Source: a virus. From it: DNA of 12,827 bases. The position numbers and the translations under genes are program-made. Below, piece after piece: positions 2-10,200 of this stretch. The stretch is taken from the UHGV virus genome UHGV-0112014. The stretch is one strand, 5' to 3'. The notes under the pieces were generated by a model that was not told the DNA's origin, ran no database searches, and saw only the letters and a list, made by a program, of their open reading frames with translations. How positions within the stretch are numbered: the first letter of the stretch is position 1; every line of letters begins with the position of its first letter.

Positions 2-1660
2 ATGAATAAGATTAGTTTTTCGGTAGGGCAGGCAGCTGGCGTTGCTGTAATGGCGGTAAATGCTGACGCTACCCTCACCAATACCAGCGGTGGCGCATCT
101 GTCTTTGCTGGGCTTGTAATATCGCGTCGTGGCGCACCGGGTAAAGTGCTGAAAGTTGACGATACGACTTATCAAAGCGTATTAGGTTCACCTATTCACC
201 CTCACCTGGGATCGGCATTTGAACCATACCGCCACGTGGAGCGTGCCGTAAAAGGTGGCTCTGGTTATGTCGTTCGTGTTTGCGCTAAAGACATGAAGGT
301 GCCGGGAATTTCTGTTTCCGTCGCGAGCAGAGCAAAAGCGGCAAAGGCCAACAAAACACTTACCGTGGAACCTGCTGAAACCACAGTAAATCCAGGTGAC
401 ACATTGAGCGTGGGTGTTGCTTCAACTGCAACGACACAATCAGTAACTTTCACACCAAAAGAAACTCCCCAGATTAAAGACGAAGGGAAGGCATTATTCT
501 TCATCAAAGATGGTGATGCATCTCAAAATCGCACGTTATCACTAACTCGCGATGATGAAGAAAGTGAACTCTTTACGCTGACGCTGAAAGAAAAACAAAC
601 CGATGGGTCTGTTGAGGTGCTGGAAAGCCACCAGGTGTCCTTCAATCCAGAAGGCACTAACGACATGGGCCAACCAGCATGGATTCCGACACTGCTTGAA
701 AGCCAGTCCACTCGCATTGGTGCCGTCCTGGCAGATAATGCGGAAGCATCTGCTGCTCAACTCATGTTTGAGGATGTGGCTTTTGAAGGCGGCACTGATG
801 GCGATTTGTCCACCATTGACACCGAAGACTATCTGGAAGCATTAAAGGTTCTCGAAGCCTCGGAGGTTAATTACACCGCATTACTGTCACTGGGCTGCTA
901 TGACGCATCCGCCTTAGCCGCGCTCAAAAATCTGGCAGAAGACGTTCGTGTAGACATGTTCTACGACCTGAAGGGCAACCAGACACCAGAAAATGCCATT
1001 TCAGAAGCTAAAAGCCATAGTTTTGGTGGCTCACACCAGCCAAGCCGCTACTACTTCCCATTCTCCTGCCGAGATACCTTCACCGGTATGAATGTTGTTT
1101 ACGGCATCAGTTGCGATGCATTCGTAGCAAAAGCAAGAGGGGTGGCTCTGGTATCGGATGTTGGCGGCTGGCATTACGCTCCGGCAGGTATATCACGCGC
1201 GATTATTGATCGACAGAATATTGCCCGAATTCCAAATATCGGTGCGGTTGATCGCGAAGCATTCGTTGTCGCACGCATTAACCCAGTTTCTGTTGCTGCT
1301 GATGGTTCTGTCTACATCGACGACTCTTTAACAACTTTCAGTAAAAACAACTACCTGCGATTCCAGCATGTTTCGTCTCTGATGAATGCTATTGCCCGTA
1401 ATTTCTATGAAGTAGCACTGGCGATTAAACATGAACCGGATGGCATTACCCAGGCGACGCTGATGAAAGCAATGACTGAATTGCTTGACCGTTACGTTGC
1501 ATCCGGTGCGCTGGTTACTCCCCGTGACAAGTCTCAGGGCGAAGATCCATATGTTGTCCAGGTTGTCCAGAAAGACATCGATCTGTGGGAAGTGTCCTGG
1601 TCTGTTTGCCCGACCGGTACAGCTCGCCGAATCGTCGGTAAACCAATTCTGATGCGCTGA
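2..1660 (+). CDS. Contractile tail sheath protein (552 aa) with a central Ig-like/Thr-rich insertion
   Basis: Intact ORF from ATG at nt 2 to TGA at 1658-1660. Because the ATG is at nt 2, a start upstream of the window cannot be excluded. The C-terminal half carries recalled sheath-family motifs (GGWHYAPAG, then ARINPVSVAADGSVYIDDSLTT, resembling the APAG and N.iR...vwGarT blocks). Residues about 100-230 (KTLTVEPAETTVNPGDTLSVGVASTATTQSVTFTPKET...) look like an inserted beta-rich domain. Confidence 0.85.
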   Translation: MNKISFSVGQAAGVAVMAVNADATLTNTSGGASVFAGLVISRRGAPGKVLKVDDTTYQSVLGSPIHPHLGSAFEPYRHVERAVKGGSGYVVRVCAKDMKVPGISVSVASRAKAAKANKTLTVEPAETTVNPGDTLSVGVASTATTQSVTFTPKETPQIKDEGKALFFIKDGDASQNRTLSLTRDDEESELFTLTLKEKQTDGSVEVLESHQVSFNPEGTNDMGQPAWIPTLLESQSTRIGAVLADNAEASAAQLMFEDVAFEGGTDGDLSTIDTEDYLEALKVLEASEVNYTALLSLGCYDASALAALKNLAEDVRVDMFYDLKGNQTPENAISEAKSHSFGGSHQPSRYYFPFSCRDTFTGMNVVYGISCDAFVAKARGVALVSDVGGWHYAPAGISRAIIDRQNIARIPNIGAVDREAFVVARINPVSVAADGSVYIDDSLTTFSKNNYLRFQHVSSLMNAIARNFYEVALAIKHEPDGITQATLMKAMTELLDRYVASGALVTPRDKSQGEDPYVVQVVQKDIDLWEVSWSVCPTGTARRIVGKPILMR

Positions 1661-1667
1661 TTTATTA

Positions 1668-1687
1668 CCCCCGCAGAAATGCGGGGG
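1668..1687. terminator. Perfect GC-rich stem-loop (CCCCCGC-AGAAAT-GCGGGGG) between sheath and next gene; possible attenuator or RNA-processing/stabilising hairpin
   Basis: 7-bp perfect inverted repeat with a 6-nt loop, read directly. There is no downstream U-tract on either strand, so it is not a canonical intrinsic terminator. Confidence 0.3.
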
Positions 1688-1701
1688 AGAGAGGTTTGAA
1701 A

Positions 1702-2427
1702 ATGAAAAATTATACTGCTGATCCTTTTATGCGTGCGATTTTTGGTTCTGGCTGCTTTGAAAGCGGTGATAAATCTACGCCGGGAAATGATGATAAAGCC
1801 ATGCTGGAAAGCGCCGAACAGAAAACTCAAACAAAGCCAAAAGAAGATATTGAAACCGCGATGATGGAAGCGGTTGAGTCTCGCGCACAAGGAGATATGC
1901 GCAGCCTGGCGGCTTCCATGCTTGCAGGCTGGATTGAAGATGGCGATCCAGAAGCTGACTCATTTGATGCGTTAGCAATCACTATGGCTGGCCTGGCTGA
2001 TATCGATGAAGACACCGATTTTACCGATGAACAAGTCGATGCTTATAACGATGCTCTTGCAGCCCTTGCAGATGCTGCTGTTGCGCTTGGCGCAGACCAG
2101 GACGACGTGACCGAGATGATCGACGATGAAGATGACTCTGCTGCCGAACGTGTATATGACGCGCTTTCCGAAAGCGACGCCGACATGATGGAAGCGGCTA
2201 TTGCCATTTACACCGTTGCTGGTGGTGACAGCGCAATGCTGGAAGCGGTACGTAAAAAAGTGGTCCGTGATGGCAAGGTTACCATTATCCGTAAGCGCCC
2301 GCGCCCTCGCCGCATGACATCATTGCAAAAACAGGCGCTGAAAAAAGCACGCCGCAAAGCGCATACATCCGTAGCAAATATCAACCGCAAAAAATCAATG
2401 CGCATTCGCAAAAAACGCGGTTTGTAA
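1702..2427 (+). CDS. Hypothetical protein with a strongly acidic Asp/Glu/Ala-rich N-terminal body (about 200 aa) and a strongly basic Arg/Lys-rich C-terminal tail (about 45 aa)
   Basis: ORF track gives 1696 (TTG); the ATG at 1702 is preferred because GAGAGG at 1688-1693 sits 8 nt upstream. TAA stop at 2425-2427. Composition is read from the translation (...DIDEDTDFTDEQVDAYNDALAALADAA... then RKRPRPRRMTSLQKQALKKARRKAHTSVANINRKKSMRIRKKRGL). No family recognised. Confidence 0.75.
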   Translation: MKNYTADPFMRAIFGSGCFESGDKSTPGNDDKAMLESAEQKTQTKPKEDIETAMMEAVESRAQGDMRSLAASMLAGWIEDGDPEADSFDALAITMAGLADIDEDTDFTDEQVDAYNDALAALADAAVALGADQDDVTEMIDDEDDSAAERVYDALSESDADMMEAAIAIYTVAGGDSAMLEAVRKKVVRDGKVTIIRKRPRPRRMTSLQKQALKKARRKAHTSVANINRKKSMRIRKKRGL

Positions 2428-2434
2428 GTGACAC

Positions 2435-2456
2435 AGGCCACCTGCAAAGGTGGCCT
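2435..2456. terminator. GC-rich stem-loop (AGGCCACC-TGCAAA-GGTGGCCT) after the acidic-protein gene; weak terminator or attenuator candidate
   Basis: 8-bp perfect inverted repeat with a 6-nt loop, followed by CTATCT (weakly T-rich). Confidence 0.3.
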
Positions 2457-2476
2457 CTATCTGGGAGGAATAGCGT

Positions 2477-3067
2477 TTGATTTGCGGCGCGATAATGCCT
2501 GATGGAATAAGTCCATTGATGAAGGTTTATATCCTCTCCCCTGAGGATATGGTCGTCGGTTATATCGGTGAAGGATCTACCGCAGAACTGTCTTCAATGT
2601 GGCAATCACCATTTGAAAACCAGTCAGTCGGGGGCTTGCTTGGCGGTATTAGCGCAGCGGCTGGCTCTCTCGCTGATACACTTCAGACCGCAACCGGCGT
2701 AACAACAAAGACCCTCTTTAACTCAATGCTTGTTTGGGAAGGTCAGCAACCGCCTGAATTTAATCTGGTTATTGACTTCATGGCGACAGTAAACGCGCAA
2801 CTTGAAGTGAACGCAGCCATTACAGCATTACTGAAGATGGAATCGCCGGAACTGAACAATGTAGCGCCATTCGGTCGCCGCCCGGAGACGGTAACGTTAA
2901 ACATAGGTAGAAACATAGCCCTTACCGACGTCGTTATCAAAAGCGTGAGTTACCAACTGGACGCTCCGCGCACACCGGAAGGCTATTTCACTCATAACAC
3001 GGTAACCCTGCAATGCAGCGGAAACACCTCTATTAACCGTAGCAATATCTCATCTGTTTTTGTGTAG
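2477..3067 (+). CDS. Tail structural protein, possibly tube-family or tube-initiator-like (196 aa)
   Basis: TTG start at 2477 with GGAGG at 2464-2468 (8-nt spacer); TAG stop at 3065-3067. Position between sheath and a gp19-like tube gene; beta-rich composition. Functional assignment is weak. Confidence 0.55.
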   Translation: MICGAIMPDGISPLMKVYILSPEDMVVGYIGEGSTAELSSMWQSPFENQSVGGLLGGISAAAGSLADTLQTATGVTTKTLFNSMLVWEGQQPPEFNLVIDFMATVNAQLEVNAAITALLKMESPELNNVAPFGRRPETVTLNIGRNIALTDVVIKSVSYQLDAPRTPEGYFTHNTVTLQCSGNTSINRSNISSVFV

Positions 3068-3075
3068 GAGTATTT

Positions 3076-3567
3076 ATGTCCGGTTTTGCAAATACAAAAT
3101 CCGATATGGCCTTTCTGAAATCCCGGTTTAATAAAAACCTGGCTGCGGGCGAAAAACTTATTGGCTCTGAATATTGGATGACCATTAAAGGTTATGAGCA
3201 TCTGTCTGTACTGGTTCGTACTGCTCAGTTACCAGAAATGACACGCGAAGATGTGGAAGATTACGCTCCTGGTGGCATGAAATTCAACCAGCACGGACCA
3301 TTACGCAACTCTGGTGAATTTCAGGTCACATGTGCGGAAACTATCGAGGGCGCAGTTCTCGCCGCTGTAAAACAAATGGTATACGGCAAAGAATATCTGG
3401 AAATTACCTTACAGGCAGCGGCTGAATCCAATAGCGGTAACCATAAAGGTCTGATCCGCACATATTCTCACTGCAAAGTGTATTCCGACGCCGTGGACTT
3501 CTCCTCCGAAGACGTAACGGCAGTCGTTAAGCCTTCCCTGCGCATTGTTTACAACTGGGCAGAATAA
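3076..3567 (+). CDS. Tail tube protein, T4 gp19-like family (163 aa)
   Basis: ATG at 3076 with AGGAG at 3066-3070. Same length as T4 gp19, and the layout (...TAQLPE...GEFQVTCAE... C-terminal ...YNWAE) resembles the recalled gp19 pattern (...TALPA...TVTV... ending YWE). Not verified by alignment. Confidence 0.6.
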   Translation: MSGFANTKSDMAFLKSRFNKNLAAGEKLIGSEYWMTIKGYEHLSVLVRTAQLPEMTREDVEDYAPGGMKFNQHGPLRNSGEFQVTCAETIEGAVLAAVKQMVYGKEYLEITLQAAAESNSGNHKGLIRTYSHCKVYSDAVDFSSEDVTAVVKPSLRIVYNWAE

Positions 3568-3574
3568 TCCCCGC

Positions 3575-3593
3575 TCCCGCCCTTGTGGCGGGA
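3575..3593. terminator. GC-rich stem-loop (TCCCGCC-CTTGT-GGCGGGA) after the tube gene
   Basis: 7-bp perfect inverted repeat with a 5-nt loop. Third intergenic hairpin of the same style in this operon. Confidence 0.3.
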
Positions 3594-3611
3594 ACTCCTT
3601 GCATTTGAGTT

Positions 3612-4172
3612 GTGGGTACGATGACACCAACCGAATTATTAGAAAGCGTTAAAGCACGATTTAATCCACTGCTTGTGCGTGAAGAAGAAACGCTGAAAGC
3701 CTTCCTGATCAAAGCACTGACAACGTATCAGGACAGGGCAGGGGTAGTGAAAACATTAAAACTTGAAAAAGATGGTGGCACGGCAATCCCATTGCCAGAA
3801 GATTATCTCTCTCTGGTCCATGTTACCGACAACAATGGCCTGCTGGTCTATTCGGATGAATTATCCGGCTTTATTGAATTAGAGCTAACAGGTGCAGAAC
3901 GCTGGCCTTTTCGGATGCTGTATCTGGTTAATCTACGCGACAGAAAGCTGGATGAATGGCAAGTGCCGCCAGCGATCATTGGGATGCTGGAGGAGTATCT
4001 GGAGGCGCTTATCAATGTCAGAAATGTCGCCCGGCAGCGGCGAGCGTCCATCGACGGAAAATTTGACTACTCCGATCTACCCGATGAAGCAACGCTATAT
4101 GCCCGCGTGCAGGAGATTGAGGAAAAAATGTCTTCAAACCGGGCAATCATTCCGGGGGCTACCATTTTTTAA
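3612..4172 (+). CDS. Hypothetical tail-module protein (186 aa)
   Basis: ORF with GTG at 3612 (alternative ATG at 3621), neither with a strong SD; TAA stop. Co-oriented and tightly packed within the tail cluster. No motif recognised. Confidence 0.55.
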   Translation: MGTMTPTELLESVKARFNPLLVREEETLKAFLIKALTTYQDRAGVVKTLKLEKDGGTAIPLPEDYLSLVHVTDNNGLLVYSDELSGFIELELTGAERWPFRMLYLVNLRDRKLDEWQVPPAIIGMLEEYLEALINVRNVARQRRASIDGKFDYSDLPDEATLYARVQEIEEKMSSNRAIIPGATIF

Positions 4173-4187
4173 CGCTGGAGGCGCAGA

Positions 4188-4895
4188 GTGAGTATTTTCA
4201 GCAGCGTTGGTAGAACGTTGACCACCGCATTGTCATTTAACACGAAATCATTCACCAGCAACCTCATTAGCGACATTCTTGATAAAGCCATATCAGGCGG
4301 CGGGGTAAGCGGGAATTACAGTAGCGATATTGCCTACGGGGAAAATATTGTTGCTGCCGCTATGCGTATCCGTTATGCCCAGGGATGGCAATGGACAGTT
4401 GAAGTGGATGGCCTGAACGGCTTCGATATGTTCGTGAAGGATATCACGTACAGCAGTGGAAACATCGAGACAGAAAGCAAGGTGATCGGCAGCGTAGAAT
4501 TCAGCAAGCCAACCTATGTTAGCGCCGGACCGGTCACTATGACCGTGAGGGATACCGAAGATGGCAAGATCATGGACTGGTTCAAAGAACGTCGTTCTCG
4601 CGTAACAAATCCGGACGGAACAATAAACCTTCCTCCTGAATATCTGATGAAAATCCGTCTCTACCGGGTAACTCAGGACGGCGGAAAAGAACTGGAAGAA
4701 GAAATGCGCGTATTTCCTACGCAACTTGGGGAGATCACACGCTCACGTGATCAGGTATCAGAGTTCTTGTCATACCCAATCACTTTCCAGAAATACACAT
4801 CCGCAGGCTCAGGTGTTTCTGCTTTGGTCAACGGTGCCGCAGGTATGGCCACAAGTGCGTTAAAGGGGGCTATCAGTGGAGTGATCAAATTCTGA
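4188..4895 (+). CDS. Hypothetical tail-module protein (235 aa) with a Gly/Ala-rich C-terminus
   Basis: GTG start at 4188 with GGAGG at 4177-4181 (6-nt spacer); TGA stop at 4893-4895. Last gene of the first + strand block. Confidence 0.6.
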   Translation: MSIFSSVGRTLTTALSFNTKSFTSNLISDILDKAISGGGVSGNYSSDIAYGENIVAAAMRIRYAQGWQWTVEVDGLNGFDMFVKDITYSSGNIETESKVIGSVEFSKPTYVSAGPVTMTVRDTEDGKIMDWFKERRSRVTNPDGTINLPPEYLMKIRLYRVTQDGGKELEEEMRVFPTQLGEITRSRDQVSEFLSYPITFQKYTSAGSGVSALVNGAAGMATSALKGAISGVIKF

Positions 4896-4985
4896 GATGC
4901 TTTAATTATGTGTGCTGGCGGGATGATCATTTCCCGTCAGCAACCACGCCCCCAACGATAGCGGGTAGGGAAGGAAGCGCAATTT

Positions 4986-5230
4986 TGAGGGCATTTTTTA
5001 CATCATCAATCCATCTGTAATGATGGCATTATTTACACATTCCAATGTAATCAATAAGTTAATCTAACAAACGATTAAGGAAAAAAGCAATAAGAATGCC
5101 AGACACACACGATATAGATTGAGGGTAATTTTTACATAACCTTTACCTATCAATATGTTACATAAAAACATAAACTGCAAACGACAAGATACATGCGATT
5201 TAGATGTAAAAATTGCCCTCAATTGCCCTT
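4986..5230. repeat. Iteron-like repeats downstream of rep (incC-like): direct copies at 4986-5004 and 5120-5137, inverted copy at 5205-5222 plus a partial at 5223-5230
   Basis: TGAGGGCATTTTTTACATC, TGAGGGTAATTTTTACAT and the reverse complement ATGTAAAAATTGCCCTCAA share the TGAGGG(C/T)AA core of the upstream iterons. 5113-5137 and 5197-5222 form a head-to-head pair flanking an AT-rich spacer. Confidence 0.55.
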
Positions 5231-5561
5231 AAGACTGTTGATAGGTAAATTTTATCCTGGCAACTTTGCCGCCTTCCGTCACTTCTGAGAAGACTATTTT
5301 CATTTTTGTATTTTTTTCAATCTCTGCTACAGCCTTCGTTAAAAAACTTCTCTTAAATTCAGCATACCGCTGGTAGCTTTTTGGCAGCCCGTAACGCTCC
5401 CGCATCCATTCAACGCCAAGTATAGCGAAGCCGCTCCCATCATCCTTTCTATACTGGCATAAGGACTCATAAAGCCGCATAGAATAAGGGTTTGTCAGGC
5501 GAGACACTTCAGTAAAATTCAGCCTCGTGAACCTCTTATCAAGCAGAGTAAAAAACGGCAT
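5229..5561 (-). pseudogene. repE: C-terminal fragment of the repE-like initiator (WH2/iteron-binding region) downstream of the amber codon
   Basis: Sub-feature of the pseudogene above. In frame with the N-terminal fragment, with no convincing independent SD before the ATG at 5559-5561. Confidence 0.55.
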
Positions 5562-5585
5562 GAGATATGGATTCAGATGAATAAT

Positions 5586-5984
5586 CTAAGTCCCCCGGCG
5601 TGGTGAGTAAGCCTCCTTAATCATCCAGGGATAAGACTCATAACTGTCTTCTGATTCGGTTGATTCATCAGGGTTATATATCGTGACTTTCTTCTCACTA
5701 AGTCCGGAGATAGCTTTACGAATATCCTTGCTGGCTTCAGCAGAGGGCAAATTATACATCTCTGCATATTCGTTGACCGTCAACTCACAGGCTCCTGAAC
5801 CAAGAACGCCATCCTTAGAAGCATAGCGAAGTCTTCCCACCACAATAAACAACAGTCGCTTTTGGTCGCGTGTCAGATGATAAGCCGCCTCTGTGATCTC
5901 ATTAGCCTGCGCCAAGCTACGGCTAATTGGTGTCGCTGATTCAATCAGACTGACGGCTTTTGCCGTTAATTCCGCTCTGTTCAT
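5586..5984 (-). CDS. repE: N-terminal fragment of the repE-like initiator (132 aa, WH1/dimerisation region), terminated by the amber codon
   Basis: Sub-feature of the pseudogene above. It has its own start and plausible SD, so a truncated product could be made. Confidence 0.6.
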   Translation of the reverse strand: MNRAELTAKAVSLIESATPISRSLAQANEITEAAYHLTRDQKRLLFIVVGRLRYASKDGVLGSGACELTVNEYAEMYNLPSAEASKDIRKAISGLSEKKVTIYNPDESTESEDSYESYPWMIKEAYSPRRGT

Positions 5985-6008
5985 AACCCTGTGTGATCCT
6001 TCAAATGG

Positions 6009-6130
6009 TGAGGGCAATTTTTACATCCCTTTGAGGGCAATTACTACACCTTTTGAGGGCAAATCTTACACCTACTGAGGGCAAATCTTACACCTTAATA
6101 GCTTAATTGAGGGCAAATCTTACACCTTGC
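6009..6130. repeat. Origin iteron array: five direct repeats of about 22 bp (consensus TGAGGGCAAATCTTACACCT) immediately upstream of rep
   Basis: TGAGGGCAA cores at 6009, 6032, 6054, 6076 and 6108, giving spacings of 23, 22, 22 and 32 bp (about two helical turns). The last three copies are near-identical. The core resembles recalled F ori2/incC iterons (...AATTGCCCTCA in the other orientation). Confidence 0.8.
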
Positions 6131-6164
6131 TCCTCTACAAGCCGCGCCACGCTTGGCCTCTGCG

Positions 6165-6230
6165 ATGCCTAAAAAGGATCTAAAAATGATTAAAAATGGA
6201 AAAAGATTTATAAAAATACTCTGTGGATAT
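6165..6230. promoter_or_regulatory. AT-rich tract (candidate DNA-unwinding element) followed by a DnaA-box-like site TGTGGATAT (6222-6230)
   Basis: AAAAAGGATCTAAAAATGATTAAAAATGGAAAAAGATTTATAAAAATACT, then TGTGGATAT, which is 8/9 to the reverse-complement DnaA-box consensus TGTGGATAA. Sits between the iteron array and an inverted iteron copy. Confidence 0.5.
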
Positions 6231-6247
6231 GTGAATAGCGTCACTTA

Positions 6248-6268
6248 AGGTGTAAAAATCACCCTCAA
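6248..6268. repeat. Single inverted iteron copy (AGGTGTAAAAATCACCCTCAA) on the far side of the DnaA box
   Basis: Reverse complement TTGAGGGTGATTTTTACACCT matches the iteron consensus apart from a C-to-T change within the conserved core and a few mismatches in the body. Confidence 0.5.
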
Positions 6269-6373
6269 TAGTTGCTGTTCGATCGACGAAATCATCACTC
6301 AATCCCCCCCTCCGAAATCACACACTCCCTATCCTCTGGAAAATGAACAGACACCTGCTTATCGGAGGAATAC

Positions 6374-7195
6374 TTGAACATTCCAAAATTCCCATTGCCT
6401 TCCCGTCCTGAGACAGAAATTCAGTTCCACGCCCCAACCGTGAAGGATGCGCTGAAATATTCTGACCTGAACCCGGCAGAAGATGAGGCAACTACTACAG
6501 AGTACCTTAACTCTATGCAGGATGGTGAAATTAACGACAGTGCTTACTGGACAGTCCAGGATCGCAGAACTGCCCTTTGGTGGATATTTGTTAACTCGCG
6601 CCCCGATGCAGTAATGACCTACTCCTATGAGTGCAGTCACTGCGGTAATACGCATCATGCAGATATAAACCTGAGCGATCTGGCTCAAACAGTAGAGATA
6701 CTCACTGTACCGCCTTACATAAAAACCAACGTACCGGTAAACGGCGTACCAACCAACTGGATACTTAAACCATTAACCGGAAAAGGCGCTGAACTCCTTG
6801 AGCGTATGCGGGCATCACTTCCTGATATGAAAAGCCCAGAATACAGTGCGGGCGTGGCACGTATGCGAATTGCAGAACTCGCTTTATGTACCGCGCTTGA
6901 AGACGATCCAGAAGACTTCACGCAAGCCGCCAATCGTCGCTTTGACATCATTGAAAGCATGGCGCTCGAAACGGAATTTACTCCGCTTGTTGCTCGCATA
7001 CAGCTTATGCAAAAAGACCTACGCCACGGCCTGAAAATGTCTATTGAGAGAGGCAAAAGCCGCCTGATCCTGCCTCCGCAACGCTGCAAAAACGCTAAGG
7101 AGGGTGCAGACGTGACTACCACGCTGTACGCCCCATTTCTCAATAGAGAGTTTATCCCATCAATTAGATCTGAATGGATGGCTAACCATTATTAA
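6374..7195 (+). CDS. Hypothetical protein (273 aa) opening the second + strand tail/baseplate block; contains a CSHCGNTHH Cys/His motif
   Basis: TTG start at 6374 with GGAGG at 6364-6368 (5-nt spacer); TAA stop at 7193-7195. No family recognised. A tail-assembly or baseplate role is inferred from position only. Confidence 0.55.
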   Translation: MNIPKFPLPSRPETEIQFHAPTVKDALKYSDLNPAEDEATTTEYLNSMQDGEINDSAYWTVQDRRTALWWIFVNSRPDAVMTYSYECSHCGNTHHADINLSDLAQTVEILTVPPYIKTNVPVNGVPTNWILKPLTGKGAELLERMRASLPDMKSPEYSAGVARMRIAELALCTALEDDPEDFTQAANRRFDIIESMALETEFTPLVARIQLMQKDLRHGLKMSIERGKSRLILPPQRCKNAKEGADVTTTLYAPFLNREFIPSIRSEWMANHY

Positions 7196-7249: not shown

Positions 7250-10200
7250 ATGGCGAGCACTCCATATGTCAAAAGCCCTGGAAGAAAAATACAAAGCTCA
7301 AGCCGGGAAACGTTGATCGCCGCTGGCAAAAGAGAGGTTATTTTGAAAGAGAATAAAGACCGCATCGCAATAATTGACGCTATTCAGGGGGCGAGCGCAC
7401 ACGAACTTAAGGCTCTTGCTGAGATAAAAGACGCGATTCTTTCTGGTGGGGTCGCCATAACTCAACAGGGAGGACAACAAGGTAAAGTTAGCAACAGGCT
7501 ATCCCGTAGGCGTAAAGACTACGGGCAAAACGCACCTGAAGTCGTCAGAGACGCTCAAGCTAATCCATATAAAAAACGCCTTCCGGCGAAAAAGGAGAGG
7601 GCGCTAATAAACCAGGACATAGATCGCTCTATCGTTGCAACTAACACACCAGAAAGTGTTCATTCTGTGCGATCACGCCAGACCATCAAAAGGTCGAAAG
7701 GTTCTATACCGGTAGCAGCTAATTCTACCTCTCTGCAACCACAATCCCCCCAAAGCCCAAAAGGCCAACTGCGGGATAGTAACGGGCGCTTTGTATCCCA
7801 GAAAAATAATGAGGATATAGCCAGAAAAAAAGAATGGCAGAACGCACGTAAGGCCGACGCAAAACTACAAGAAGGCTTTCTCCGGAAGCTGGGTTCTGTT
7901 ATGGGGATGGATGGAAATCAGTCCACCAGTGAAGAGTCTTTAACAAATGCCGCAGGTGTTGGGGCTGGTGGTCCGCTATGGATGGCGGCGCGTGGCATGT
8001 ATGACATTGCAAAAGAGATCACAGGGAAAGCAAAATCACTTAAGGAGTGGGTAGATAATTCACCAGACACCAAAGCAAAATCGCCAGCGATCACTTACCC
8101 GGCTGTAGCCAATGCTCAAAAAACAACCTCCGCAACAGCATTTAATAATGCTGTTGAGACAAAATCCGCACAAGCAGTAGAAGAGCAAACAAAAATTCTT
8201 CAGACCAATGACAACAAAATAATTGATGGTCTGGAAAATGTCTCCGACGAAGTAGCTAAGCTACGTAAATCAGTATCTTCTGGGAATAAGTTCGGCTTGA
8301 GTGATCTCTGGAGAAATCGAGCAAGCAGAAGAAATAAAATCAATATTGGCGATCAGGCTGGTAAAAATAAACGGAGCAAACCGAAAAGGAAAGGTCGCAA
8401 TCTTGGGGGAAAAGCCCTTTCCGTTGGCGAAAAAGTCGCTGCCGGAACCGCTGCTGTTGGCGCTGGTGCCGGAGCTGCAAAGACTGTTAAAACAAAGGTT
8501 AGTAAAGCCAAAGACATCAGCACCACAAGCGACGTATCTAAGGGTATTGCTAAAGAAACAAAAAACACAGCAAAGGCAGTTAAGCCAGCAGGTGTTGTTG
8601 CCGAAGAGGCCACAATTAAAACAGGTGAGACTGTTTCAAAGAAAAAAACCGAATCTGTAGCCCTCAAAAGTGCTGCAAAAATAGGCGTTAAATCAGCTGC
8701 ATCTACAGCGGCAAGAGCTATCCCTATTATCGGGTCGTTGGCAATGGCTGGATATGACGCTATAGACGGTTACACAGATACAGATGCGCAAAAAGCGGCC
8801 TTTGGCTTAAGTGATGATGATATTGTATCCACACAGCAAAAAACCGCTTATGCAACAGCTAATGTGCTTGATATGGGCGGCTTAGTGTCGGGTGCAACCA
8901 ACCTAATAGGTAAAGGAATCTCTGCGTTAGGCTTCGAAAGGGCAGGTGAGAAACTTCAGAATTTTGATACCGAAGATATTGCTCGTGGTGTTAATGGTGC
9001 TGTAGATATCACTAAATCTGCTTTTGGTAGCCTCAAGGATACATTTTTATCCTCTGACGAGAGCACGAAGCAGGTAAAAAAAGCAGTTGAAGATGGCACA
9101 AAAAAGACTGTCGATGCGATTCATTCTTTAGGTGAGCAGCTACAAGGCGGGCGTGATGGTGAAGATGGTGTTGGTGAGCACGGGTATACTTCCCCGGCTG
9201 AATTTAATGCGCCTGCCAGCAATACCATTGCAGCGGATCTGAATATTGGCGGGAGCAACGCTAAAAACCGTAATTACCGGAATAATAATCTCGGCAACCT
9301 TGTTTTCGCTAATCAGGAAGGGGCGACACTGGAAGCGCCAAATGCAAAAGGTGAACAGCGTTTTGCTCGATTCAACACGCCTGAAGAAGGGATCAGGGCG
9401 CTGGCAAACCAGGTGTCAAGTTATTATAACGGCACCAGTGCCGCTGCTGGGTATCAGAAGTTACAGACGGTATCCAGTATTATTTCCAAATGGGCACCCC
9501 CAAAGGAGAACAATACTAATCAATATATCGATAACGTCAGCAAATATCTTGGTGTCTCGCCTAATGAAAAAATAGACGTCAGCAACCCGGAGGTTATGAC
9601 GCAATTAGTTCGTGCTATTGCGACGAAAGAAGGCGGAAACCCTGCGGTTAATAATGAGTTTATTAAGAATGCTCTTGGGGCGTTCAATGCAAATACCGGT
9701 CGTTGGGAGGGGCGCTTCTCCGATGAAACATTGGCGCGGCTTAATAAAATTCAGAAAGAGAATGGCGGTCAGCTAATTGCTCGTGATTCGCAATATAGCG
9801 TTGGTCGCAAGGTGAGATATGCTGATGGTACATCTCCGGCACAACCTGTATTGAATGCAGTCCCAACAGCAACACCTAAGCCAATTGAGGTTGCACAACA
9901 TGCCCAGGCAGCAAAAAAGCCACAAAAAACAGGTAACCGACCACAACCGATTATTCCAGAGAACGCTGATGTTAATACTGACTCGCCATCGAGTTTGCTT
10001 GAGCGGTTAATCGCCATAAATGAAAGCGGTATCAGTGGAGTAAGTGATTTATTTGGCGGCGCGGCTACCAGTCTTGCTGGAACAAGTCTGGACTTGGTGA
10101 AGGATTTTGCGTCGGATACTTCATTTGGTTCTATATCTTCGCTTTCAGAAAAGGCGAAGGGAATGGATCAGGCTCTGACTGAAAAAATATCCGGCTTAAC

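Follow-up and report, generated by a model that had tools for sequence, protein, structure and literature searches.

How does a plasmid replicon come to lie among the tail genes of a phage, and what has become of it in a copy whose initiator gene is interrupted by a stop codon? The question is raised by a window of 12,827 bp that spans an entire metagenome contig (ENA ERZ1309120 NODE_1072; SPAdes k-mer coverage 2.69), itself a linear 12.8-kb fragment. A sequence-only reading had described a mini-F-like layout on the minus strand, made up of an inverted iteron, a DnaA-box-like site, an AT-rich tract, five phased iterons, a repE-like gene and downstream iteron-like repeats, and every one of these elements was found, within positions 4986-6267. 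Very probably, this region of about 1.3 kb serves a D6-like phage-plasmid as its plasmid-prophage (lysogenic maintenance) replicon and is related to ori2-repE-incC of mini-F. The replicon as such is already known from the annotation of D6 and D6-like plasmids and from publications on them, and the sole unusual point is that the allele is damaged, with a stop codon in the initiator gene and two control repeats lost.

The initiator gene, rep (repB in D6-like elements), spans positions 5229..5984 on the minus strand and comprises 251 codons with a TAG at codon 133, its identification drawing on Pfam, on identity to RepE and on the annotation of D6 and of plasmid pPSS-10_3. Both this length and the domain matches refer to the read-through of the in-frame TAG, the protein being split as encoded. 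The read-through Rep matches Pfam Rep3_N (PF01051; E 4e-29, 102.1 bits with a gathering cut-off of 22.4) and Rep3_C (PF21205; E 2.5e-15, 56.9 bits with a cut-off of 21.1). Likewise, it shares 50% identity with F RepE over 228 residues, each protein being 251 aa long, and matches the RepE crystal structures PDB 1REP and 2Z9O with E ~1e-73, in agreement with its earlier description as RepE-like and with the Rep_3/RepE similarity that this description predicted. Weak matches extend to the R6K pi protein (2NRA, E 2e-6) and to pPS10 RepA (1HKQ, E 4.5e-4). By analogy, the D6 Rep probably works like that of mini-F, yet it is not F RepE. On the NCBIfam RepE equivalog model (NF010305), Rep scores 280 bits, below the cut-off of 342, and among plasmids this Rep falls in a tight cluster of 108 records at 95% or above, followed by a gap down to IncFIA RepE at ~50%. 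Relative to D6, the gene differs by 46 synonymous and 3 non-synonymous changes, the stop counting among the latter, and purifying selection on Rep is strong across the D6-like family. The rep allele in the window is a mosaic of alleles found in other relatives. A sigma-70 consensus scan of the minus strand returned no rep promoter, and inspection by eye was unconvincing too. Since no such promoter passed the scan, the autoregulation of rep by iterons is suggested only by the 24-bp gap between the nearest iteron and the ATG.

Eleven matches to the iteron pattern TGAGGGCAAWNNTTACA (at most 2 mismatches) occur in the window, all of them inside 4986-6267, where shuffled sequences lead one to expect 0.06 for the window and none of 200 shuffles reaches eleven. 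Five of these are the origin iterons, recovered by the pattern scan and as repeat families on the plus strand at 6009..6124 (starts 6009, 6032, 6054, 6076 and 6108), which form a phased direct-repeat array adjoining rep with spacings of 23, 22, 22 and 32 bp, the innermost one ending 24 bp from the rep ATG. Their map is unchanged in all aligned relatives, and they have AAATTGCCCTCA in common with the iterons of F. Next comes an AT-rich tract with one GATC (6160..6219), the presumed DNA unwinding element, whose A+T content peaks at 87.5% over 40 bp around 6178-6217 and whose motifs TATTTTTATAA and TTTTTAGATC..TTTTTAG are common to F ori2. The DnaA-box-like site is present as described, except that what had been taken for a single site consists of two boxes with one base in common (6222..6238, minus strand), as in F ori2. 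On the rep strand, 6222-6230 reads ATATCCACA and 6230-6238 reads CTATTCACA, each with 1 mismatch to TTWTNCACA, and the pair is conserved in 34 relatives. On the far side of the boxes lies an outlying inverted iteron (6251..6267, minus strand, 2 mismatches), which corresponds to position -283 in the relatives and is kept in all of those that reach that far; a comparison with the F origin found no counterpart for it. Downstream of rep, control iterons are found at 4986..5002 (plus strand, in the orientation of the origin iterons; 1 mismatch to the consensus; +1030 in relatives), at 5120..5136 (plus strand; 1 mismatch; +896) and, inverted relative to the origin iterons, at 5205..5221 (minus strand; 0 mismatches; +811), together with a degenerate copy at 5021..5037 (plus strand; 2 mismatches; +995). 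Relatives covering that stretch have six downstream iterons, at +753, +782, +811, +896, +995 and +1030. Additionally, an iteron-like sequence lies within rep itself (5742..5758, plus strand, 2 mismatches), at +226, and is kept in every relative.

The element to which this replicon belongs is indicated by its closest matches. Over the 1.5-kb region, identity is 90.9% to Escherichia phage D6 and 98.8% to the E. coli plasmid pPSS-10_3, and the gene order of both is that of the window, i.e., sheath, gene 21, pmgG, bplB, pmgC, tub, rep (on the opposite strand), pmgB, sit, pmgA and bplA. The two flanks were correctly recognized as tail blocks, with the sheath, the tube and PmgG/PmgC upstream and with PmgB, the Sit transglycosylase/tape measure protein, PmgA and BplA downstream. 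These identities are backed by PHROGs; Pfam recognised almost no tail proteins of the window, and PHROGs and the D6 and P1 annotations were used instead. The phage-plasmid, one of the options originally proposed, is supported by the match to D6 and to about 120 plasmids of ~90 kb with rep in the same place, 117 of which were typed as non-mobilizable; a few relatives reside on conjugative or larger plasmids. A search of 5,426 complete E. coli genomes gave 122 matching places, every one of them on a plasmid and none chromosomal, which argues against the chromosomal prophage that had also been envisaged. Elsewhere in its genome, D6 carries a C1 repressor, terminase, portal and major capsid genes, the repL lytic replicon, Cre/rox and phd-doc, as well as partition genes of the StbA/ParM type and a ParA-like one about 10 kb from the replicon. 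The major capsid gene lies 2 kb upstream of the sheath gene. The window is indeed devoid of partition, capsid and terminase genes, as had been pointed out; the head genes of D6 speak against the other option then raised, a plasmid-borne tailocin.

The D6 record annotates orf42 as a putative plasmid replication initiator, and among phage records this Rep occurs in D6 alone. For the D6-like element pYU39_89, a repB with iterons and a repL have been described (PMC6799933), and D6-like elements have been screened by repB, which was reported to be absent from plasmid-typing databases (bioRxiv 10.1101/2025.09.12.675607). The replicon therefore adds nothing new in itself, D6-like prophages having been sequenced, annotated and surveyed in Escherichia, Shigella and Salmonella; given the reported gap in the typing databases, its iteron and origin map could help typing. 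P1-like elements, in turn, are typed by their repA, as IncY or p0111. The notion that D6-like elements are those bearing the PlasmidFinder p0111 replicon was considered and dropped, since p0111 stands for an alternative repA found in P1-like elements. Nor does the locus correspond to the IncY/p0111 repA of P1 (Punavirus), a phage in which no replicon separates tub from pmgB.

How the tail gene cluster accommodates a plasmid origin is best seen from the borders of the module. The placement had been regarded as unusual, a view that does not hold for this lineage, given the same position in D6 and pPSS-10_3 and a replicon map kept in about 37 aligned relatives. It is true that the replicon lies within the tail cluster, between tub and pmgB; it probably lies not inside an operon but between two late units. 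The upstream late block ends with the tub-like tail tube gene (4188..4895, plus strand), whose product has 98.3% identity with D6 Tub and 51% with P1 Tub (PHROG E 3e-97). Directly 3' of tub, folding predicts a plus-strand hairpin with an 11-bp stem and no U-tract (4914..4941; MFE of -34 kcal/mol and z of -2.0 for 4890-4990), which could possibly mark the end of the upstream late transcript. At the other border, the plus strand carries a D6-type late-promoter-like motif, AAATCACA-N7-TATCCT (6315..6335), 39 bp upstream of the pmgB-like gene (6374..7195, plus strand; PHROG PmgB-like, E 8e-134, and D6 annotation) that opens the downstream late block, and this motif is invariant in the alignment of relatives (A1).

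The motif recurs in D6. Searched for in its exact form, AAATCACA-N7-nAnnnT (a relaxed pattern derived from P1 LPsit was discarded as too noisy), the composite is found in 8 copies in D6, with 0.4 expected, and all 8 are intergenic, each standing immediately before a late operon of its own orientation, namely those of tail lysozyme, portal, ddrB, R, pmgB, major capsid, gene 7 and mat. This distribution suggests that the AAATCACA-N7 composite is the late promoter of D6, and the replicon would accordingly sit between two late transcription units without splitting an operon. A plasmid origin could be tolerated without harm in the tail cluster because the module lies between late units, beside the apparent late promoter. 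In P1, the gap between tub and pmgB is 14 bp and lies within the late operon starting at LPsit, and in Cronobacter phage JK004 the homologues of the two genes are 15 bp apart. Since tub and pmgB adjoin in both phages and D6 is the sole phage record with this Rep, the insertion of rep marks the D6 lineage.

Against this conserved background, the copy in the window has two lesions. The first is the in-frame amber codon (TAG, codon 133; 5586..5588, minus strand), which is TAC, encoding Tyr, in every relative. The comparison set comprised about 37 loci, i.e., D6, pPSS-10_3, 17 IMG/VR loci and 18 metagenome loci, and all of these aligned relatives have TAC at codon 133 and an intact Rep of 251 aa. 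In PLSDB, no plasmid is identical across the TAG site, the best match being 98.8%. Of three metagenome matches to a 19-base probe (L031, L036 and L043), one carries TAG, but all three turned out to be unrelated sequences that match by chance. Truncation at residue 132 takes off the end of the first winged-helix domain (WH1) and all of the second (WH2), and because of the amber at residue 133 no full-length initiator can be made from the gene as written except by stop-codon read-through. Reassignment of the stop codon was considered and excluded, all other genes being intact under table 11 and having the same lengths as in relatives.

The second lesion is a 48-bp deletion (alignment A1, columns 322-369), whose junction falls within a 7-bp microhomology, AATTGCC (5221..5227). 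Of the iteron overlapping the stop codon of rep it leaves only the smaller part, and the next one is lost entirely; both members of this pair (+753/+782) are kept in all relatives aligned over that segment. When the deletion junction was used as a probe against PLSDB, only pPSS-10_3 matched, in two pieces, and no plasmid matched in one piece. Compared with 32 relatives, the 1.5-kb replicon has 4 private substitutions plus the deletion, a rate similar to that of the neighbouring tail genes, and all changes downstream of the TAG relative to D6 are synonymous. Strong purifying selection on Rep, together with so few private changes, indicates that the lesions are recent.

What do the lesions mean? 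One explanation, somewhat short of an even chance, is that they are real and that the phage-plasmid no longer depends on this replicon, either because it is fused to or integrated in another replicon or because it is defective in lysogeny and lives lytically by means of repL. In its favour, the truncation at residue 132 costs Rep the end of WH1 and the whole of WH2, and D6-like elements do possess a separate lytic repL. Additionally, the few relatives found on conjugative or larger plasmids suggest cointegrates, and in one metagenome relative (L032) Rep diverges after residue 213 and the downstream iterons are missing. On the other hand, further decay is not seen, the 4 private substitutions in 1.5 kb leaving the origin iterons and DnaA boxes intact, and the contig ends show no sign of a junction to another replicon. 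If the lesions are real, they provide a natural case of a phage-plasmid that loses or re-tunes its plasmid lifestyle, and thereby bear on the switch between vertical and horizontal transmission.

It is also possible, though rather less than probable, that the amber codon, and perhaps the deletion too, are low-coverage assembly errors and that the true replicon is intact and ordinary. The k-mer coverage of 2.69 would allow this, the stop is a single base change present in no other record, the codons beyond it differ from those of relatives only synonymously, and the rate of private changes matches that of neighbouring genes. A second contig (L047; ENA ERZ920362, run ERR1190924, project PRJEB12124) weighs against it, since this contig, assembled with MEGAHIT at k=127, is 100% identical to positions 1121-5842 of the window over 4,722 bp, both lesions included. 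The samples of this project come from a Chinese cohort with type 2 diabetes and were taken both before and after treatment (PMC5702614). The agreement between SPAdes and MEGAHIT rules out an artefact of the assembler. A contig built at k=127 should need real reads spanning the deletion junction, where only 7 bp are common, and since a 7-bp microhomology cannot make a false join at this k, the deletion is taken as real DNA. The ten other genes of the contig are all intact, which likewise speaks against poor assembly. Still, the two assemblies may share reads or derive from the same person, and with the same few reads possibly underlying both, a read error could account for the stop; the amber codon is real with about two chances in three.

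Taken together as genuine, the lesions would define a human-gut D6-like phage-plasmid in which a real knockout or severe hypomorph of the initiator (Tyr133 amber) is combined with a shortened control array, the element being a low-Rep replicon with compensation or else a derivative defective in lysogeny, which would persist by spreading lytically or by being carried along on another replicon; we regard this full description as tentative and on balance doubtful. Its compensated version, in which the two lesions form a pair, is unlikely. Under this proposal, a little Rep would be made by read-through of the TAG, and the reduced number of titrating and handcuffing iterons would restore initiation. 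Both private structural changes do fall in one 1.5-kb module, the 11 kb of tail genes being untouched. It is established that removal of control iterons raises copy number in F incC and P1 incA, and that autorepressed rep genes are transcribed more when Rep is scarce. The proposal is nevertheless one of inference throughout; moreover, a search of D6 for an amber suppressor tRNA found none encoded, and two hits in one module could be a coincidence. Least credible by far is that the region is a plasmid-borne tailocin or injection system, or a chromosomal prophage with a dead plasmid remnant, which would fit a window lacking capsid, terminase and partition genes but is contradicted by its colinearity with D6, where capsid, portal and terminase are present, by the 0 of 122 E. 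coli matches on a chromosome, and by the strong purifying selection on Rep throughout the family.

With the region read as the maintenance replicon of a D6-like phage-plasmid, its working in the undamaged state can be outlined by analogy with F RepE and P1 RepA. Rep monomers would bind the five phased origin iterons and DnaA the two adjacent boxes, and the two proteins together would open the AT-rich tract, where the host helicase and replisome would load for theta replication. When occupying the promoter-proximal iterons, Rep may repress its own gene, and the downstream iterons may titrate Rep and handcuff origins, which would result in a low copy number. Lytic growth would be left to the separate repL replicon elsewhere on the element. 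As for the surrounding genes, the upstream late transcript would end after tub, and the late promoter would restart transcription before pmgB.

Several known systems show how far these likenesses reach. R6K pi, pPS10 RepA and the pSC101 initiator have the same architecture of two winged-helix domains (Pfam Rep3_N/Rep3_C), but they are far more distant than F RepE, and their iteron sequences and hosts differ. The oriR-repA-incA replicon of P1 (IncY) ensures the low-copy maintenance of the P1-type prophage and has origin iterons very near rep and a downstream control array. The maintenance role and the iteron logic are therefore alike, and P1-like tail and head genes are common to both elements, whereas the P1 replicon occupies another locus, tub and pmgB being adjacent in P1 with no replicon between them.

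The ori2-repE-incC region of mini-F (IncFIA) has the same order of DnaA boxes, AT-rich tract, phased iterons, rep and control iterons. In the orientation of rep, the iterons here read GGTGTAAGATTTGCCCTCA or GATGTAAAAATTGCCCTCA and those of F read TGTGACAAATTGCCCTCA, the right half AAATTGCCCTCA being common. Similarly, the DnaA boxes of F ori2 are a pair with an 8-bp offset, after which come TATTTTTATAA and TTTTTAGATC..TTTTTAG in this order, with a single GATC, as is the case here. Comparison of the module with F by blastn gave two short patches only, so that homology to F rests on the protein and on the ordered motifs, not on DNA identity. The two replicons also differ in several respects: F has four origin iterons and the region here five; repE is preceded by 97 bp with inverted TGTGACAA operator arms, in contrast to only 24 bp here; the control iterons are all inverted in F and of mixed orientation here; and the region here has the extra inverted iteron past the DnaA boxes and no adjacent sopABC.

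By far the closest are the D6-like replicons themselves. Rep is 99% identical at the protein level to those of D6 (orf42), pYU39_89 (repB) and pPSS-10_3, which also agree with it in their origin iterons, DnaA boxes and inverted iteron. Flanks were read for two of these loci, D6 and pPSS-10_3, and in both the replicon is likewise located between tub and pmgB. The copy described here differs from these replicons in the TAG at codon 133 and in the loss of two of the six downstream iterons.

Exchange among relatives is visible in the rep gene, which encodes the RepE-like initiator. Across codons 178-191 (window 5412-5451) it differs from its counterpart in the related plasmid pPSS-10_3 by seven clustered synonymous substitutions, and this cluster is the allele seen in five other relatives; the 5' part of the gene resembles the allele shared by loci L016 and L039. 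Hence, rep alleles recombine within the family. Differences from pPSS-10_3 number 154, and 117 of them are concentrated in window 7500-9000, a 1.5-kb part of the transglycosylase/tape-measure gene sit. This divergent part is a mosaic patch, and its surroundings are 99.8% identical to that plasmid.

D6-type replicons are also altered elsewhere. In the metagenome relative L032 (OQVL01001061.1, 11202-12913), Rep continues into unrelated sequence beyond residue 213, and both the iterons downstream of rep and the tub gene are missing, which together indicate a rearranged D6-type replicon. Additionally, two D6-type Rep fragments from other public assemblies (P0002 and P0005, of 136 and 154 aa) are frameshifted as assembled, either in reality or through long-read homopolymer errors; the 154-aa fragment sits on a 103-kb contig.

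Within rep, an iteron-like sequence with two mismatches (window 5742-5758, at +226 relative to the rep start) is kept in all relatives examined. On the origin side, window position 6028 (-44) is C in the window and A in 32 of 32 relatives. This private substitution misses the promoter-proximal iteron by 2-3 bp and adds a third to the private changes carried by this variant's control region. Further out, with the origin on one side and the probable pmgB promoter on the other, a poly-C tract (window 6304-6310) varies in length among relatives, being C7 in the window, C10 in pPSS-10_3, and shorter and interrupted in Escherichia phage D6.

The composite motif AAATCACA-N7-nAnnnT precedes pmgB at window 6315-6335. 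It occurs eight times in D6, against 0.4 copies expected (record positions 19215, 25241, 27747, 38135, 45511, 54144, 67413, and 72120), and every one of these copies is intergenic, immediately 5' of a late structural operon and in the same orientation. The motif is probably the D6 late (Lpa-type) promoter. Phage D6 further encodes four tRNAs, namely Met, Ser-UGA, Thr, and Asn, as well as a glutaminyl-tRNA synthetase, in segments represented by loci L021 (6084-7850) and L022 (5026-6687); these genes lie outside the window and have no bearing on the replicon finding.

The D6-type Tub protein (window 4188-4895) comprises 235 aa, and its alignment to P1 Tub is restricted to residues 60-205. Because the alignment covers these residues only, D6-type Tub possesses an N-terminal extension of ~59 residues, which P1 Tub lacks.
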